In this document: one piece after another, positions 2,548 to 29,489 of the stretch
How the letters are laid out: the number at the start of each line of letters is the position of its first letter
Position numbering within the stretch: position 1 is the first letter of the stretch
Source of the DNA: a virus
Taxonomy: Duplodnaviria; Heunggongvirae; Uroviricota; Caudoviricetes
IMG/VR virus record: IMGVR_UViG_3300041405_000148
Span: 89,310-153,309 of that record
DNA: 64,000 nt
Direction: 5' to 3' (one strand)
The notes under the pieces: model-generated
Databases searched by the model: none
Told to the model about the DNA's origin: nothing
The model's input: only the letters and a program-made list of their open reading frames with translations
Made by a program: the position numbers and the translations under genes

Positions 2548-2631
2548 TTTAGCTTAAAGAACTATAGACAAACTCGATTTGAAGTATTATACTATTTGTA
2601 AGTAACATAACCCTAAAACAGGAGAAGAAAA

Positions 2632-3189
2632 ATGTCTATTCAAGAAAGAAATCGTGGCGGTGAAGGTGAACGTAATACCTACCAGAGGAAAAATATTTCT
2701 GAACGTGAAATAACAGGTCTATTAGTCAGTAACTTTATGACGATGTTAGAAGACTCGTTAACCACGGGAGTCAACCTGAGCTTTGAAAGTTCTGTTGTTA
2801 TTCAGCATCTTCATGACGATAGAGTACAGTGTGCATACCTCACTAATTTCTATCCTTTAGATGTTGAATTGGAGGTAGAAGAGCAGAAGGAAGTCATTCG
2901 CACCATGAGTTATGGTGGTTACAGTGGATTACCTGCTGTAATAAAAGAAATGCTGAGAGAGCAAGTCAAGAACATAGTAGAAGAAGTCGAGAGAGTTAAA
3001 CGTTTTCATCCAGACACTGAAGTAACAGTTTATTTCTCTCCTGCTGATACTCTTGACCATTGTGGCACAGTTGCTAAACCAATCTACGGTTGGATTATTT
3101 TTGGAGAAAAGTCTTACTTCCAATCTGAGTGTAGTTTTGTTGTCATCCCTCATGATGAAAGTAGTCGTGCATACATGAGTAAAGACTAA
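2632..3189 (+). CDS. hypothetical protein (185 aa)
   Basis: ORF preceded by an AGGAGAAG ribosome-binding site. Confidence 0.55.
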   Translation: MSIQERNRGGEGERNTYQRKNISEREITGLLVSNFMTMLEDSLTTGVNLSFESSVVIQHLHDDRVQCAYLTNFYPLDVELEVEEQKEVIRTMSYGGYSGLPAVIKEMLREQVKNIVEEVERVKRFHPDTEVTVYFSPADTLDHCGTVAKPIYGWIIFGEKSYFQSECSFVVIPHDESSRAYMSKD

Positions 3190-7412: not shown

Positions 7413-7440
7413 CTGTGGACGACTCTGGTCGTCCTTTTTA
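7413..7440 (+). terminator. rho-independent terminator (repeat copy 2)
   Basis: GGACGAC-tctg-GTCGTCC followed by TTTTT. Confidence 0.65.
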
Positions 7441-8263
7441 TTTGCACAATAAGCAGTGGACAGATCTGATCCGCTATGTCATAATCTCTACAGGTTATGG
7501 TCACTGGATTCCGTGGGAGACATTTGTGAAATCTGAATCTGAGCACATATCTGAATTTATTGCCACTGGTAAATTCCCTGAAGGTGCTATCTTTAAAAAA
7601 TTAAGTGTCCAGGGACTTTGGCAATATACCTGCCCGATTTGTAAAGATGATGAATACTGTCTCGCAGGGTTATGTGATGGTAATTTTAAATGTAACATCA
7701 GAAGCCTTAAAAGAGGGGAGTTGCCTTGTCGTTGCTCAAAGAAAGCAAGACTTTCAGGGGAGCAGTGGACGTATAGAGTGAGAAAGGAGTGTGAGAAACG
7801 GTCTTATACTTTCCTACGTTGGACTACCGAAAAGATAGGTTCGCACCATAAGTTTGAATGTGAATGTAGAATTCATGGGAAGTTTTCTTTAGCACCTAAC
7901 ACGTTGTTGAAGGGCACTGGTTGTGCTAAATGTGTGAATGTAAATCAGACACAAGCTTATGTGAATGTGATTAAGGATGGGGAGGTTGACCTTGGGATTA
8001 AGTATGGTATAACAAATGAAACAACAATAAGGTTGCGACATCAAAATAAAAGGAATGCACTTAAAATGGTAAATTTATGTGTCTTTAAATTCCCAAATTC
8101 AGGTCTTGCCAAGTTAGCTGAATTAAACTGCAAGAAGAGGCTAGGTAAACCATTACTTAAAAGGTTAGATTTAGTAGATGGATGGACAGAAACTACACAC
8201 ATAAATAACCTGGATATTGTGATATCCACATACAAAGAGTTTGGTGGCATAGAAATGAAATAA
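7415..8263 (+). CDS. Cys-rich protein, a possible free-standing endonuclease-like gene (282 aa; the true start is probably downstream of the hairpin)
   Basis: Several CxxC/CxC clusters and an HHKFECEC motif. The gene is bracketed by near-identical terminator hairpins. Confidence 0.4.
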   Translation: MDDSGRPFYLHNKQWTDLIRYVIISTGYGHWIPWETFVKSESEHISEFIATGKFPEGAIFKKLSVQGLWQYTCPICKDDEYCLAGLCDGNFKCNIRSLKRGELPCRCSKKARLSGEQWTYRVRKECEKRSYTFLRWTTEKIGSHHKFECECRIHGKFSLAPNTLLKGTGCAKCVNVNQTQAYVNVIKDGEVDLGIKYGITNETTIRLRHQNKRNALKMVNLCVFKFPNSGLAKLAELNCKKRLGKPLLKRLDLVDGWTETTHINNLDIVISTYKEFGGIEMK

Positions 8264-8271
8264 TCAATAAA

Positions 8272-8300
8272 ACTATGGACGGCTCCGGTCGTCCCTTTTT
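8272..8300 (+). terminator. rho-independent terminator (repeat copy 3)
   Basis: aactATGGACGGCtccgGTCGTCCCTTTTT. Confidence 0.65.
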
Positions 8301-8400
8301 CTTATAAATACTCCTTGCTTTGGACAGCTCTAAAGTGTATATTATACTCAATGAGGAACGCCGAAACTCGAATCCAAGACACTAGGGTTGTTTTGCAACT

Positions 8401-8418
8401 GAGATGAGAATTCATCTC
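8401..8418. repeat. palindrome gagatga-gaat-tcatctc (member of the GAATGA-N3-TCATTC family)
   Basis: Perfect 7-bp arms. Confidence 0.5.
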
Positions 8419-8874
8419 ATTATCAATTTTTAAACGGGCATTAGAAGCCCTGAAATTGATAACCTGACACCAAACCTGCCCACAGTTTACTTATACCATT
8501 TTGCAGATAAATCTTATAGAATTCTCTCAGGATATTATAATAATAAACCTGTATTTTCCCAATAATAACCCCTCCCCCGCAAAACAGACCCTAAAACAGG
8601 GTATGCCTTCCCAAAATATCCTCCAAGAAAATATCTAACATACTGATCTATTTAATCTTTTATCTTTTCCTCCCATACATTTCCTCCCCAAATTATAGCT
8701 AAATTTGTGTTTACCCCTTTCCCATATTTTACTGTCGCAATGTCTTGGGTGCTAAGCGCCGCCGATCCCCAGTCCTAGGCCAATCACAGAAATCCCAAAA
8801 TATCAAGAGAAAATAAAAATAAATATATCGCTTGACTTTCAGAACTGGCATGGTTTTTGCTGGAGGACAGCTTT

Positions 8875-8889
8875 GAATGAGAATCATTC
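8875..8889. repeat. palindrome GAATGA-gaa-TCATTC
   Basis: The same motif recurs four times at 22360-22475. Confidence 0.55.
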
Positions 8890-9059
8890 GCAACTACTTG
8901 AAAAGTAACAGCTAAACGACCGTTTACTAACTGTAACTCAGGTGAACCCGTGTCGATCTGTTAGTTAGTGAACAGTGAAACTATCACATCATGAACTCTT
9001 TCCGCTGAATACGAATCAATCTTATTACCATTAACATTTGCTTTCGCATCCGCCCAACT

Positions 9060-9076
9060 GAGAATGATTAGCATTC
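9060..9076. repeat. degenerate GAGAATGATTAGCATTC site
   Basis: Family member. Related sites also occur at 9011 and 22401. Confidence 0.4.
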
Positions 9077-9230
9077 CCATTTGTGCTGACTGAAAAATTT
9101 TTAAGAAAAACTTGACAAAGGGATAAAAATTTGCCTGACAATCTCACGTTATCCGTTCGATTTGCGACCAAATTTTAAAGGTGATAAACTAATTTACTGT
9201 TGACCGCAAAGCGGTTTAAGCTTTGCTTAA

Positions 9231-9523
9231 CTCACAGAGTGAGTACTATAGTTATTGTTAGCGAACATAATAACCAACCGAGGCGGTAGCCGCGTTGCGT
9301 TATTGTTCGTTCGCTAACGATTAGGTTTTTAATCATTTCTATAAGAAATAGTTGTTACTGTTAAGAATTACCGTAGGTAATTATTTTATAGCTAATCATT
9401 CATTCTTCTTTCAGGCGAACGAACAATTAGCAACGGAATAATCCCTAAAGGGGATTGTTACGGTTGGTTATTATGTTCGGCTCGCCGCCTAAAGCGTCTC
9501 GCCTCACTCACAATTAGCAACGG
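9231..9523. repeat. large dyad-symmetry element
   Basis: Perfect 19-bp inverted repeat cgaacataataaccaaccg (9262-9280) versus cggttggttattatgttcg (9462-9480). Inner 13-bp arm attgttcgttcgc versus gcgaacgaacaat. Central palindrome attaccgtaggtaat (~9367-9381). Direct repeats caattagcaacgg at 9424 and 9511. ctcacagagtgag hairpin at 9231. Confidence 0.6.
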
Positions 9524-9846
9524 TAATTTATTGCTCTGAATAAAAATACCTCAGAACATCGCTTATTCAATAAAGTGAATAACTATTCATGTAACATCGG
9601 CTAAAAGTGGTGATATGAGGTGAAAAGCTGTGATCTTGTTTTTGTGTATGGTGTTTAAAGAGCCTGTAAGCGATTCTAAGAGGTTTTATTGATAAGGTGT
9701 ATGGTAGGGTTGTCTTTCTGAGATGTCTTGTTTAAGCGGTTTAGTGAATAACTTCAGCGACTGTTATTGATAAGTAAAAGCTATTGGACTATTTCAGGTA
9801 AAAGAAAACCCGCTGTTAGGCGGGTTAATGTTATTCTAGATTTGAT

Positions 9847-10134
9847 TTATCTATCTTTTTCAACTTCATAAACAAAGTTAATCAGATCATCACAAACATA
9901 AAAAGTTGTGTGTATAGGGTTGACATTTGCATGGTTAGTGATCGATTGGTTATACTGACTTTCCAGCCAGTCAATATTTTCTTTGTCGTCTAACTGAATA
10001 CCACAAGTAAGGGCAACTAACATAACAGCGGTTTTCCGTGGTTCTTCAGTGTTCACCAGATTGATTTTAACGTCTAACACGTTGAAGCCGAAACGGTTAA
10101 CAGTGACGTGAACAAATGGAGTTGAAGTAGCCAT
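9847..10134 (-). CDS. hypothetical early protein (95 aa)
   Basis: ORF. Promoter-like TTGACG-N18-TATACT at about 10180-10215 on the minus strand. Confidence 0.5.
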   Translation of the reverse strand: MATSTPFVHVTVNRFGFNVLDVKINLVNTEEPRKTAVMLVALTCGIQLDDKENIDWLESQYNQSITNHANVNPIHTTFYVCDDLINFVYEVEKDR

Positions 10135-12427: not shown

Positions 12428-12652
12428 CTACATGCTTCCATCAGCTTCACAGCCTGAGTTAACCATACCAATAAAACCGGAGAAGATAGCAACTAAGAAA
12501 CATAACATCTCAGCACCTGCTAAAGCAGGGATAATCACGTTAACCAGGACAATGGAAGCAATAAACAGTACTATAGCAAGGATGAAAGAAAAGCGCATTT
12601 TAGTATTCCTGATTTTGAAGGGGAAGATGTTTCCCCTTTCGATATAAAACAT
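12428..12652 (-). CDS. small membrane protein (74 aa, 2 TM)
   Basis: Two hydrophobic helices. Confidence 0.45.
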   Translation of the reverse strand: MFYIERGNIFPFKIRNTKMRFSFILAIVLFIASIVLVNVIIPALAGAEMLCFLVAIFSGFIGMVNSGCEADGSM

Positions 12653-12695
12653 TATACAGTGATTTAATTAAGATGCAAGCTTTTGTTTGCTTTTA

Positions 12696-12914
12696 TCAGT
12701 GCACTGCGGAAGGCGTGACGCTCCAGCCACAAGATATCACTTCACCTTTTTCTAACTCAAATTCCCAATAAAGATCTTTATGAGTAATATAAACATAGCG
12801 AGTTATTTCAACATCTTCCTGATAATTAACTACACCATAACGGCGACACTCTTTATAAATACTTTCTAAGTCACCTTTCTTTTGTGTAGCTTTCAGTTGT
12901 GATTTAGTTAACAT
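12696..12914 (-). CDS. hypothetical protein (72 aa)
   Basis: ORF. Confidence 0.4.
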   Translation of the reverse strand: MLTKSQLKATQKKGDLESIYKECRRYGVVNYQEDVEITRYVYITHKDLYWEFELEKGEVISCGWSVTPSAVH

Positions 12915-13079
12915 TGTTTATCTCACTTAGTTAGCGTTATTGCCTGATAAAGATATTACTAAAAGCGCCTAACGTTTGCAAGCGCTTTTGATAAATATTT
13001 TATTAATAAGTACCTTCCGGCAAGTAACCACTATCAAATAGTCTTTGTAAAATTCGAGATACTTCTTCTTTATTATAAG

Positions 13080-13283
13080 CTAATTTAATAGTTTCTTTTC
13101 ACCATACTCTGAAAACTTCTCAGATAGCCAACACTCTTTTGCGTTGTCTGTCAACACAAGATAACCGTAAACAGCATGGCTACGAATAACAGGGTAATCT
13201 TTGTTTGCTGTAAACATATATTCATATTGAGGCTTGACATTATCAAATGTTATGATCATACATTTACCTTTTATGAAAGTCAA
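13080..13283 (-). CDS. hypothetical protein (67 aa)
   Basis: ORF. Confidence 0.4.
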   Translation of the reverse strand: MTFIKGKCMIITFDNVKPQYEYMFTANKDYPVIRSHAVYGYLVLTDNAKECWLSEKFSEYGEKKLLN

Positions 13284-13566
13284 TCGCTGAAGTTAGCTTG
13301 TTGAGTCCGGCCTTAACTTCTGAAGTTATGCTATAATAAGCTTTTTCTTTAACAGGTGCAAGCATTAGTTTCTTTATTTCCATATTTGCTTTTACCTTCT
13401 GTTTAGTGTTCATCTTGCTGTTATTTTTGATAAGCAGCAATAAGTTATTGACTTTATCATTATGTTGACGGTAAATAAATTCCGGCTTAAACTCTTGCCT
13501 TTCACAGTGTTCAATTGTTGACTTAGCCAATGCACGTAAAGTTGAGAGAATTGTCAAGTTATCCAT
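13264..13566 (-). CDS. hypothetical protein (100 aa)
   Basis: ORF. Confidence 0.45.
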   Translation of the reverse strand: MDNLTILSTLRALAKSTIEHCERQEFKPEFIYRQHNDKVNNLLLLIKNNSKMNTKQKVKANMEIKKLMLAPVKEKAYYSITSEVKAGLNKLTSAIDFHKR

Positions 13567-13576
13567 GTTTAACCCT

Positions 13577-13750
13577 TACTTTTCAAAGCGCACAAGTTTA
13601 TCAGCAGCGCGGCGGCCCCATTTACCATTTGATGCCTGTACATCTTCAATCGCCTTGTTTACCTTTTTGATTTCGGCTGAATAAGCAGAAATAACGCAGA
13701 GAACAGGGACAACAGTAGCTAAAACACTGAGGGCGATAATCAGTGACATT
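13577..13750 (-). CDS. small membrane protein (58 aa)
   Basis: ATG ORF (MSLIIALSVLATVVPVLCVISAY...), not in the ORF track. Confidence 0.35.
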
Positions 13751-13852
13751 TTAATTTTCTCACACTACAGGCTAACCGTTAGCCCGTCTCTATGTGTAGT
13801 AATATACAGAAAAGCCGCTAAGGCGTCAACCCCAGCGGCTAAGATATTCCAA

Positions 13853-14176
13853 TTATTTTACGTTTATATTTTCTTTATATTGTGTAAAGCTATCATCTGC
13901 ATCATCAACGTTTTGCAGGTAATAAACATTCTTATTCATGCCTACCCATTCACCAGGCAAGACACGGTAACAGCCTGCAAACTGGTACTGTCTCGTTACT
14001 GGGTTACTGCGAACATCATCAGGAAACAACGCTTTCAATTGCTCTTTACAATCCGCTTGATCCTTGCTGTACTGTGATCCGCCCTGCCAGCTCTTATGAT
14101 AGGCAGTTTCACACTTATCCTTATTGTCCGGCGTTAAGGTGCAAAGGAACGTGGCAAAAACGATTGATGCGATCAT
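13853..14176 (-). CDS. secreted or periplasmic protein (107 aa)
   Basis: N-terminal hydrophobic signal-like segment. Confidence 0.45.
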   Translation of the reverse strand: MIASIVFATFLCTLTPDNKDKCETAYHKSWQGGSQYSKDQADCKEQLKALFPDDVRSNPVTRQYQFAGCYRVLPGEWVGMNKNVYYLQNVDDADDSFTQYKENINVK

Positions 14177-14214
14177 GATATTTTCTCTTAGTTTATTGTT
14201 TGGTTAACTTCTTC

Positions 14215-14254
14215 GCTCTGAGTTCTAATCTACAGAACTCAGAGAGATAAGTCA
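14215..14254 (-). promoter_or_regulatory. sigma70-type promoter TTGACT-N17-TAGATT with the -10 hexamer in the loop of an 11-bp perfect hairpin
   Basis: Minus strand reads TTGACTtatct CTCTGAGTTCT gTAGATT AGAACTCAGAG. Confidence 0.6.
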
Positions 14255-14265
14255 ATCACTTTTAT

Positions 14266-14454
14266 TTACCTCTTTGTTTCTTTCCATTCACCTGTCCAGA
14301 AGTAAATGAAAAACGGCGCCGCTATTACACAAGTATAAACCATGTAATCAAAAGAGGATTTTTTAGTCCCAGCATCTAAAGGTAAACAAAGACAAACAAA
14401 AGCTTGCATTATCCCTAAAAACGTGATAACTAAGATTATACTTGATTTACTCAT
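14266..14454 (-). CDS. small membrane protein (62 aa)
   Basis: ORF preceded by a hairpin-type promoter. Confidence 0.45.
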   Translation of the reverse strand: MSKSSIILVITFLGIMQAFVCLCLPLDAGTKKSSFDYMVYTCVIAAPFFIYFWTGEWKETKR

Positions 14455-21757: not shown

Positions 21758-21860
21758 AAACCAATACAGAATTATTGATGAATGCTTTAGGTTGGCAGGG
21801 CGTCCTGGCGGCGATGCAGAAAATAGAATCTAAATAATTGTAGACGGGGGCGAAAGCCCC

Positions 21861-21869
21861 TGATATAAT
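21861..21869 (+). promoter_or_regulatory. extended -10 element TGATATAAT, directly after a GGGGC-GAAA-GCCCC hairpin
   Basis: Seen in sequence. The GC-rich structured segment 21875-22030 lies downstream. Confidence 0.4.
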
Positions 21870-21874
21870 GTCCA

Positions 21875-22030
21875 GACAGTAACAGAACGCCTCTCCAACG
21901 GCGCTAAACCTGGCTAGCATACCGGCAGCGGATGCAAGGTGGATCGCCCGCAACACGTCTTGATAAATTAAAGCCCGGTCACGTGTGTTATTAAATGGCG
22001 GTTGCCGGGTCGCCCCATAGGCGAGTCACT
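21875..22030 (+). ncRNA. candidate structured small RNA (GC-rich island in AT-rich DNA)
   Basis: Local GC-rich segment with multiple potential stems (gcccggtc / gccgggtc repeats). No ORF with a ribosome-binding site. Lies downstream of TGATATAAT. Confidence 0.2.
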
Positions 22031-22045
22031 AGAAAAAATGAGATG

Positions 22046-22215
22046 GTTAGACGTGATCCCATTTTTCATATTTCCTAAAAATCCAGGAAAATTTTTTCCT
22101 ATCACCAAATTTCACGGGAAAATTTTTTACTCTTAGGAAATTTTCGCCGCAAGAAAAAACCTCTTATATAATTTGACACGCAAGAAAAAACGTGCCTGCA
22201 AATTTTGAATTTTCC
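22046..22215. repeat. A/T-tract direct repeats (GGAAAATTTTTT x3, GCAAGAAAAAAC x2)
   Basis: Seen in sequence. Phased A-tracts of this kind are typical of bent origin or regulatory DNA. Confidence 0.5.
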
Positions 22216-22359
22216 ATTTTCCGGGCTAATGAGTTTTGTAAATATTCAAAAAATCGCTTGCTGTCTTTAGTGATTGTGTTATTATACCTGCATAAAGACA
22301 GCGGCGGGGAGAATTGACCCGGAGACAATCACCGGAGCTGGGCGCTATTCCGGTAATAC

Positions 22360-22475
22360 GAATGATTCTCATTCAAATGGATGAATACAAATCAAAATGA
22401 GAATGATTCTTATTAGCATTCAATATCTTGAATGAGAATGACTATCATTTGCAGATGAGAATGATTCTCATTCAA
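22360..22475. repeat. cluster of four palindromic sites of the GAGAATGA-TTCTCATTC family
   Basis: Sites at 22360-22374, 22397-22420, 22430-22450 and 22457-22473. These are the same motifs found at 8401, 8875 and 9060. Confidence 0.6.
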
Positions 22476-22616
22476 CCCAAAAATTTTTATCGGGATCTGA
22501 TTTTGGAGGTACACCCATATTTTCAGAAAAATTTCAAATCTGAAATTCCGAAACCTCCAAAATGCTAATTTGAAATTCCCGCCGGGGCAAATTCTCCGTG
22601 AAAAATAAATTCTGAG

Positions 22617-22625
22617 TGATATAAT
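22617..22625 (+). promoter_or_regulatory. extended -10 element TGATATAAT
   Basis: agTGATATAATt. An identical 12-mer recurs at 22668. Confidence 0.4.
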
Positions 22626-22667
22626 TCATGAGTTTGGGTAAAAATAAGGACAATTACTTTTTAATAG

Positions 22668-22676
22668 TGATATAAT
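22668..22676 (+). promoter_or_regulatory. extended -10 element TGATATAAT
   Basis: Second copy. The downstream 200 nt carry no ORF and end in a ggttgc/gcaacc hairpin. Confidence 0.4.
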
Positions 22677-22917
22677 TTAGTTTGAAAAATTTCAAGGACT
22701 TATTTGAAAATCTTGAGAATAAAGTTTTGGAGAAAATTTCAAATCTGTTTTCAATAAAGTCTAAAAATGCTAGTATTTATTTTCACTTTCAGAAGAAAAT
22801 TGTTGCGGATTCTACTGAGGATATAAAGTGAAAAAGGTTGCCATCTCCAGCAACCTCCAACTTTTCAGGGAAAGGGGTGTCAATTTATTTTAGTGTTTAC
22901 TTTTAAAATATCCTGCC

Positions 22918-28940: not shown

Positions 28941-29489
28941 GACTAAAACGTCTTAGAATCGATTACAGAGAGGATTTATGTGGATTACTATTGAAGTAGA
29001 CAAAGAAGATTTAGAAGAAGTAAATATGACTCCTGAAGAACTCAAAGAAGCAATCATTCAGGACTTGGATGATGCACGTGATTATCCAGGTTTCTATGTG
29101 AAAATCGAAGTAACCAAGTAAATTGGTCTGACCAATTGCAATTGGTAAAGTGGTCTGACCAGCACTTACATTTCATGGGTGAGGCAAAAGGCCTGGCACA
29201 TGAAATATTTTTCATTTAGGGTATTGACAAATCTGAAAGATGTGATACCCTAAAGATCTTTAATAACAAGAACGAAGGTCAACAGACCGAAGTGATTGTT
29301 ATTAAAGATAGTTTTGTTTTTGTTTTATAAAATAATCAGGAAACGTAGTGAGTGGTTATTTTATAGGTGTATGTTTTAATAAAATTATTATAAAACGTAT
29401 GTGACTAATAATTTTATATTATAAGTATAATTTTAATTAAATCTAAACTATGATCTTACATAGATCTGTGATCTAAAGAGGAGATACAC

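Follow-up and report, generated by a model that had tools for sequence, protein, structure and literature searches.

Structured DNA that acts in cis beside a terminal repeat is known from phages T7 and T5. In T7, packaging requires an end-proximal origin (PhiOR), pac and the 160-bp terminal repeat, and a hairpin-ended DNA intermediate that contains the repeat forms while the concatemer is processed. The T5 injection stop signal (iss) is a non-coding region of 1.66 kb. It lies at the boundary of the repeat, contains palindromes, boxes for host factors and inverted repeats nested in one another, and is better conserved than the neighbouring open reading frames (ORFs). A further comparison is offered by sites that work as strand-specific folds of single-stranded DNA (ssDNA), such as integron attC, the ssi sites or primosome assembly signals of plasmids and phages, and the hairpin promoters of N4. 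We focus here on a nested inverted repeat, hereafter the dyad, at positions 9262–9479 of a 64,000-nt stretch of viral DNA (IMG/VR record IMGVR_UViG_3300041405_000148, positions 89,310–153,309), the whole of which we call the window. The nested repeat is real and far beyond chance. DNA elements that fold on one strand are conserved throughout a subfamily of E. coli and Klebsiella phages, just inside the short terminal repeat at one end of the genome, and the dyad is the version of the window; it probably forms the structured heart of a non-coding region, itself conserved, that controls the genome end, and probably takes part in the copying or packaging of the ends. No description of these dyads was found in the searchable literature, and whereas T7 and T5 have made the general kind of element familiar, the design, the strand bias and the subfamily-wide conservation appear to be undescribed.

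The outer arms of the dyad, CGAACATAATAACCAACCG at 9262–9280 and its partner, CGGTTGGTTATTATGTTCG at 9461–9479, are complementary at 19 of 19 positions (this and the other parts of the dyad are given on the + strand). The sequence-only reading that had drawn attention to the locus described this 19-bp perfect repeat correctly, apart from placing the right arm one base off, at 9462–9480. The second pair of 13-bp arms that it had named is present as ATTGTTCGTTCGC (9302–9314) and GCGAACGAACAAT (9415–9427), paired over 13 of 13 positions. Its central perfect palindrome, on the other hand, has to be restated: there is a symmetric element at 9366–9382, AATTACC-GTA-GGTAATT, which forms a 7-bp stem with a 3-nt loop, and the GTA centre means that it is no strict palindrome. 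The symmetry centres of the three elements (9370.5, 9364.5 and 9374) coincide within 10 nt, and the 180-nt spacer between the outer arms is non-palindromic. Two further hairpins fold within it, GGC-GGTA-GCC on the left (9282–9292), where the Klebsiella phage vB_KpM_FBKp34 (FBKp34) has a different hairpin, and AATCCC-TAAA-GGGGATT on the right (9440–9456), in a region whose AAAGGG..TGTTAC string is common to the window and FBKp34. Directly left of the dyad lies the small hairpin that had also been pointed out, CTCAC-aga-GTGAG (9231–9243), and the direct repeats reported at 9424 and 9511 are copies of ACAATTAGCAACGG at 9423–9436 and 9510–9523, the second being a reiteration in the flank. The motif CGAACA, or its inverse TGTTCG as in the inner left arm, stands at the arm ends in alternating orientation (9262+, 9304−, 9420+ and 9474−).

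Chance is a poor account of this arrangement. A perfect 19-nt inverted repeat at a spacing of 30–320 nt is expected 1.8e-4 times per 64 kb, and a 13-nt repeat nested within it 4.7e-4 times. Only three perfect inverted repeats of at least 13 nt occur in the whole window, and the dyad arms are two of them; the third, ATCTTTAATAACAA, is 14 nt long, with its arms 26 nt apart at 29256–29269 and 29296–29309. The DNA fold of 9200–9550, a check that the sequence-only reading had proposed, reaches −73.7 kcal/mol against −34.8 +/- 3.9 kcal/mol for shuffled sequences (z = −10).

The window encodes proteins with PHROG hits to a T7-type primase-helicase, a Pol I-type polymerase, helicases and HNH endonucleases, and the best relatives of the polymerase are those of FBKp34 (77% amino acid identity) and then Klebsiella phage 05F01 (58%), both of which are Stephanstirmvirinae, of the phi92/phAPEC8 group. 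Judged by these proteins, the window is a phi92-like myovirus and a relative of the Stephanstirmvirinae, in agreement with the phage origin that had been assumed. At the DNA level there is no close relative among deposited sequences; megablast and blastn gave no useful similarity between the gene-free region around the dyad and deposited phages, and no exact records of three window proteins were found. Retrieval of the locus through its flanking proteins gave one useful contig, and a second search of this kind returned nothing. The FBKp34 gap at 12568–14338 has the gene layout of the window and a nested dyad of the same kind, with outer arms CGAACATATATAGAGTAAAG and CTTTACTCTATATATGTTCG (13489–13508 and 13647–13666, paired at 20/20) and inner arms CTCTCTATATTGTTCG and CGAACAATATAGAGAG (13547–13562 and 13604–13619, 16/16). 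These are the only perfect repeats of at least 13 nt in the 40 kb of FBKp34 that were scanned, and their ends carry CGAACA/TGTTCG in the same alternation as in the window (13489+, 13557−, 13604+ and 13661−). The outer arms of the two phages differ at 10 of 19 positions, every one of which is compensated on the partner arm, so that the comparison for compensatory changes which had been suggested comes out in favour of conserved pairing. The extended motif CGAACAWW has four copies in the window and seven in the FBKp34 module, six of the latter around the dyad. Phage KP13-16 carries a near-identical copy of the FBKp34 dyad, and the two concentric perfect stems with alternating CGAACA/TGTTCG ends that mark this type are all present in the window. 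Wider pattern scans for the conserved islands of the region, in IMG/VR and the JGI metagenomes, returned chance hits except for one FKP3-like contig and one motif match in a jumbo phage, and a pattern made from the right half of the dyad had 24 matches in viral DNA, at none of which the left arms fitted.

The position of the dyad relative to the physical genome end gives it its context. Stephanstirmvirinae genomes have been stated in print to end generally in direct terminal repeats (DTRs). In FBKp34, PhageTerm placed the DTR at 12,982–13,347, inside the gap and ending ~140 nt left of the dyad, and its authors took a T4-like terminase combined with short DTRs to suggest an uncharacterised packaging mechanism (PMC8386662). 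The GenBank record of phi92 annotates a 343-bp terminal repeat, which is 1–343 in the orientation of the window, with dyad arms at 595–609 and 728–742, ~250 nt inside the repeat; BME3 has a 342-bp DTR by PhageTerm (PMC12210895) and a dyad at ~680–800 of its record. The DTRs reported for FBKp34 and phi92 range from 343 to 367 bp and lie immediately left of the dyad. A common landmark marks the end itself to the nucleotide: the FBKp34 terminus at 12982 comes directly after GAGGTGCT, the annotated phi92 end reads TAACGCG..., the same string follows GAGGTGCT directly in FKP3 and in the viral contig UViG47, and the FKP3 and 05F01 records begin at this landmark. The element is thus present in close relatives, and the ends reported for them lie beside it, as its proposed nearness to a physical end would have it.

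Since the reported ends of FBKp34 and phi92 both come directly after GGTGCT and the window has GGGTGCT at 8747–8753 (+ strand) in the alignment to FBKp34, we infer that the mature genome of the window starts at ~8754, with a DTR of ~360–380 bp. This putative DTR would span 8754–9135, with the inner boundary at 9112 by the phi92 motif or at ~9135 by alignment to FBKp34 13347; at 9098–9122 (+ strand), TTTTTAAGAAAAACT followed across the boundary by TGACAAAGG is, by alignment and the phi92 annotation, the homolog of the invariant inner-boundary motif, TTTAAGAGAAGGTGCT followed by CAACA. On this placement the dyad begins ~508 nt from the terminus and 130–150 nt inside the inner boundary. The distance from terminus to dyad is 508 nt in the window (measured in the 9254–9262 region) and 507 nt in FBKp34 (13482–13489 region) despite the divergence of the intervening sequence, which suggests that this spacing is constrained.

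Several features of the repeat itself may be set beside this. A motif of the type RGGTGCT^ stands at both DTR boundaries in the same orientation, as GAGGTGCT^TA at the outer and GAAGGTGCT^CAACA at the inner one, where GCTCAACA is invariant in eight phages; the sites are at 12974–12981 and 13309–13316 in FBKp34, 335–350 in phi92, 481–500 and 825–845 in FKP3, and 322–340 in 05F01. It is a candidate terminase cut-site motif. The FKP3 record (PP895363.1) has the repeat at 1–317, then 183 nt of unique sequence from the right end and the repeat again at 501–817, an arrangement that suggests an artefact, from assembly or permutation, in the record of a DTR genome. Fur-box-like palindromes lie in the putative DTR of the window at 8873–8891 (13/19 match to GATAATGATAATCATTATC) and 9060–9078 (14–15/19), and a further one stands outside it at 8400–8422. 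Two palindromes of this form, TGAGAATSATTCTCA, are kept in the DTRs of the window, FBKp34 (~13100 and ~13228), phi92 (56–75 and 252–268) and FKP3. Host Fur could bind them, or they could serve a phage protein as operators; Fur-like matches of at least 13/19 occur at about twice the shuffled level throughout the window and are not specific to the module.

Dyads of other sequence occupy the same position elsewhere in the subfamily. The phi92/phAPEC8/FKP3 type is found in 133 deposited genomes (GenBank); in FKP3 its arms, TGCTAATAATACCGCA and TGCGGTATTATTAGCA, are 99 nt apart and enclose three hairpins, with a fourth after them. Ten diverse members of this type all have perfect arms of 15–16 bp, in five sequence variants. 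In 05F01, the sole strong repeat in 30 kb is one of 16 bp at 533–548 and 623–638, ~530 nt into the record. In every lineage sampled there is a single strong perfect inverted repeat, and it always lies at this terminus-proximal position. An alignment of the ten phi92/phAPEC8-type phages, from which a covariance model of 158 positions and 53 pairs was built, gave a consensus fold with its 53 pairs in five helices, and 15 of these pairs have compensatory changes on both sides. In this alignment 99.8% of the cells are paired, as against 92.0% in shuffles, none of which was as high in 500, and 23–53% with slid partners; 53 cells are G·U and one is a non-pair, and in the outer stems G·U occupies 0 of 140 cells. 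The phi92-type model (cmsearch, E<=10) found no match at the dyads of the window, FBKp34, KP13-16 or 05F01. The types are thus analogous in position and design, and not detectable homologs. They share with the window the rank of single strongest perfect repeat, 140–380 nt inside the DTR (in the window, its putative one) and before a conserved right block and a terminator, a perfect closing repeat, which in the phi92 type is one of 15–16 bp, several interior hairpins, a reiterated arm motif and a bias towards the + strand. They differ in the arm motif, which is TGCTAATAAT in the phi92 type and CGAACAWW in that of the window, and in the second long nested stem, which belongs to the window type. 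The FKP3 record has ten copies of GCTAAT within its first 3 kb, and they cluster about the dyad.

This fixed position bears on the possibility of a selfish element. A 19-bp perfect terminal inverted repeat around ~180 bp is what a miniature inverted-repeat transposable element (MITE) would present. However, the outer arm is single-copy, with no further copies in the window when up to three mismatches are allowed, there is no target-site duplication (the flanks ttgttag and gctcgcc differ), and the position is syntenic in all lineages of the subfamily. A MITE-like origin, or a chance repeat with its expectation of ~2e-4, therefore has next to no credibility.

Which form of nucleic acid carries the structure can be approached through its two strands. 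In RNA folds of eight sequences, the + strand, which has its 5' end on the side of the terminus, was every time the more stable of the two, as in the window (−91.9 versus −80.1 kcal/mol), FKP3 (−65.0 versus −48.5), phi92 (−67.1 versus −56.0) and 05F01 (−45.2 versus −35.2). The window fold has nine G·U pairs on the + strand and two on the − strand, and the G·U cells of the phi92 type become A·C mismatches when read on the opposite strand. Because G·U pairing is confined to one strand in the related families and the + strand is the stabler throughout, a folded single strand is indicated rather than a cruciform of both, and neither a symmetric cruciform nor a site that a protein binds purely as duplex can account for the whole. 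The large cruciform that the locus had been thought able to extrude is accordingly not borne out, with arms 180 nt apart and, in the related families, interior hairpins that accept G·U on one strand only. The same observations make it very improbable that the dyad serves as a set of duplex palindromic binding sites, or as an extruded cruciform, for a recombinase, a resolvase or a telomere-resolving enzyme. Its perfect arms and the alternating end motif would suit such an enzyme, and both FBKp34 and phi92 encode a protein of the resolvase family; yet the arms are 100–180 nt apart around non-palindromic interiors whose pairing is strand-specific, the arm interiors change in sequence from one lineage to the next but remain complementary, the FBKp34 resolvase gene is 12 kb away, and there is no continuous palindrome such as protelomerase sites have. 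Among the likenesses first proposed, to origins, resolution or telomere-like sites and packaging signals, a packaging or replication signal near the end is now the best-supported class, and a telomere-resolution site is not.

The strand bias also counts in favour of a structured RNA, and a non-coding + strand RNA transcribed inward from the genome end is possible, if on balance unlikely. It would be ~220 nt long, multi-branched and closed by the outer stem, and would either act in trans or serve as an element for processing or stability. In the phi92 type, the five helices show compensatory changes and contain numerous G·U pairs, whether invariant or transitional; this is in keeping with such an RNA, as is the greater stability of the + strand in 8/8 sequences. 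Two small + strand ORFs lie right of the dyad in 05F01, which implies inward transcription there, and the hairpin terminator at the right edge is usable on the + strand in all lineages. In the adjoining right block there is a hairpin that covaries and has a loop of the GNRA type (GAGGcGCAAgCCTC in FKP3), and TTGACA-17-TACACA stands upstream in the phi92 subgroup. However, no upstream promoter is conserved across lineages. TATAAT in Phapecoctavirus abuts the left arm, so that a transcript from it would miss part of the stem, and TTGACA at 9113 of the window, tried as a promoter, was rejected: its −10 is poor, and since the box aligns to the DTR inner-boundary motif it is probably no promoter. 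No U-tract terminator follows the structure, the outer stems of 15–20 bp are without G·U, and the arm motif is repeated outside the stems, as in protein-binding DNA sites. Rfam gave no hits at the gathering threshold in the window and four relatives, and only chance-level ones at E<=5; ARAGORN found no tRNA or tmRNA in the window. A retron or IS605-type RNA was also considered and rejected, there being no reverse transcriptase or TnpB context, and the relatives having no HNH neighbour. A role at the level of DNA is favoured, on the other hand, by the further copies of the arm motif in the flanks, which stand in direct orientation, and by the outer stems that lack any G·U, and we read the 3-nt loops that are frequent across the folds and the alignment as a hint in the same direction.

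Among the closest described systems to set beside the dyad is the T7 cassette. First of all, in both cases non-coding DNA acting, or in the dyad's case presumably acting, in cis lies in unique sequence beside a short DTR, on one side only; this adjacency is immediate in FBKp34, phi92 and BME3 and, by alignment, would hold for the window. Second, the replisome of the window is T7-like, with its primase-helicase and Pol I-type polymerase. The differences are equally clear. There is no sequence similarity, no promoter for a phage RNA polymerase was identified, the FBKp34 terminase is T4-like according to its authors (PMC8386662), and a large, multi-branched and strand-biased fold with perfect arms of 15–20 bp has not been described for T7. 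We favour, with a confidence a little short of even, the reading that the dyad is a cis-acting, end-proximal element comparable to the ori-pac-terminal-repeat cassette. Such an element would work in cis and at the level of DNA. Its perfect arms and the reiterated CGAACAWW end motif would be recognition sites for a putative phage protein; when the duplex is unwound, the + strand would take up the multi-branched fold; and this fold would mark the site at which replication, nicking or priming rebuilds the terminal repeat and yields ends competent for packaging. In a more specific version, which we regard as rather unlikely, a + strand displaced from a nick at the terminus would fold past the repeat and stop or prime its duplication.

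The folded ssDNA sites resemble the dyad in that structure is conserved over sequence, one strand is productive, and short stems often carry 3-nt loops. They differ in having an ssDNA phase or a dedicated enzyme (integrase, primase/PriA or virion RNA polymerase), none of which has been identified for the dyad.

A number of points weigh against the cis-acting, end-proximal element. The sole guide to the terminus of the window is homology, and in FBKp34 the inner boundary given by PhageTerm (13347) is 31 nt past the GGTGCT-type boundary motif. The argument across lineages is one of analogy in position and architecture, the CGAACA type having been seen in just two independent lineages, and the protein that would recognise the arms is putative. 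GGTGCTNA by itself is found 15 times in the window, and GC skew puts the main strand switch near 25 kb, away from the dyad. Covariation over several helices with G·U on one strand is typical of structured RNAs, and the + strand ORFs of 05F01 count on the same side.

T5 offers the other parallel at a genome end. Like iss, the module around the dyad is a non-coding region of ~1.6 kb (1.58 kb) at a terminal-repeat boundary, with nested repeats and boxes resembling host-factor sites, here the Fur-box-like palindromes inside the putative DTR. A site of this sort would stall or regulate the entry of DNA, possibly by binding a host factor. The T5 repeat, however, is ~10 kb long with paired DnaA boxes, whereas DnaA boxes (TT[AT]TNCACA) were not found in the modules of the window, FBKp34 and phi92, and their DTR of ~0.35 kb encodes no pre-early genes. 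Two-step transfer is not known for the phi92-like group, and strand-specific folding would be unexpected of duplex DNA crossing the tail. We thus consider an injection-control function very doubtful.

The module as a whole extends over 8264–9846, as the ORF lists define it, and shares conserved islands with FBKp34 12568–14338 and with KP13-16. It is gene-free, as had been described, holding only unconserved ORFs of at most 54 aa in its 1.58 kb, and the gene blocks on its two sides converge: the left one closes at 8263 with a + strand gene for an HNH endonuclease, the right one at 9847 with a gene on the − strand. This position between the blocks would suit a transcription barrier or insulator against early transcripts directed at the end, or against transcription across concatemer junctions. 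In FBKp34, TTTTCT comes after the outer stem in the − strand reading, and the annotation has a promoter on the − strand and a small gene immediately right of it. Canonical terminators, however, already close both blocks. An intrinsic terminator at 8277–8294 (GGACGGCTCCGGTCGTCC then CTTTTTCTTA, + strand) ends the left one, and another at 9807–9826, whose hairpin works in both directions and which has equivalents in FBKp34, phi92 and 05F01, ends the − strand block. A scan of the region gave sites only at these two places and at 8588–8602, with none at the dyad, whose flanks (gctcgcc and ctaacaa) contain no U/T tract of the kind an intrinsic terminator has; the phi92-type dyads likewise have none on either side. 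The element is also far more elaborate than a terminator, and its bias favours the + strand, which has no upstream genes. A barrier function is thus very improbable.

Within the module, the islands CCCCTCCCCC and AAAATATCCTCCnAGAAAATAT at 8569–8634 (+ strand), on the far side of the putative DTR, keep an identical spacing of 44 nt in the window, FBKp34 and KP13-16, while the proteins flanking the module are barely conserved between the window and FBKp34; the non-coding module is thus more constrained than the neighbouring genes. A conserved right block at 9654–9800 (+ strand), which starts with TTTAAAgagCCTGTAAGCGATTCTAAGAGGT and is common to the same three phages, lies between dyad and terminator. 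It starts with TTTAAAnnnCCTGTAAGCnATTCTAAGAGG in the wider comparison (FBKp34 14145–14340, FKP3 1724–1913 and L003 2590–2617), and the FBKp34 counterpart is common to ~120 Stephanstirmvirinae genomes. The GNRA-type-loop hairpin of the FKP3 block turns G·U-paired in FBKp34, and the 22-nt start motif recurs in a 345-kb jumbo-phage contig; the block may be a small RNA or a leader. In KP13-16 a 160-aa − strand ORF (2604–3086) lies between the dyad and this block, and FBKp34 has a 52-aa remnant of it at 13697–13855, so that dyad and right block are separable units. Directly left of the module, the HNH gene (7415–8263, + strand) encodes a free-standing homing-type endonuclease (phrog_681). It is missing at the equivalent position in FBKp34; in T5, likewise, an HNH gene splits the repeat regions. 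Elsewhere in the window, a second non-coding region of ~1 kb (~21840–22900) holds a palindrome array at 22352–22475 with at least five copies of TGAGAATGATTCTCA, together with GGAAAATTTTTT and GAAATTTC repeats, is homologous to the 12.6–13.9 kb gap of 05F01 and may be a regulatory hub or an origin.

Myoviruses of the phi92/phAPEC8-like kind are frequent candidates for therapy against E. coli and Klebsiella, and the way in which they form their short DTRs and package their genomes becomes a testable question with a single-copy cis element beside the repeat whose stems, strand and lineage-specific motifs are defined. The succession of GGTGCT^ and dyad is a landmark by which genome assemblies of the subfamily can be oriented and terminated, and the element may possibly help in engineering phagemids and minimal packaging cassettes. 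If the RNA reading were true, a new structured RNA family would be present in more than 130 sequenced phages. If, on the other hand, the fold of a displaced + strand were the true intermediate, it would constitute a new route to short DTRs in phages whose terminase is T4-like and whose ends are T7-like, and the arm motif of each lineage would co-evolve with its recognition protein.

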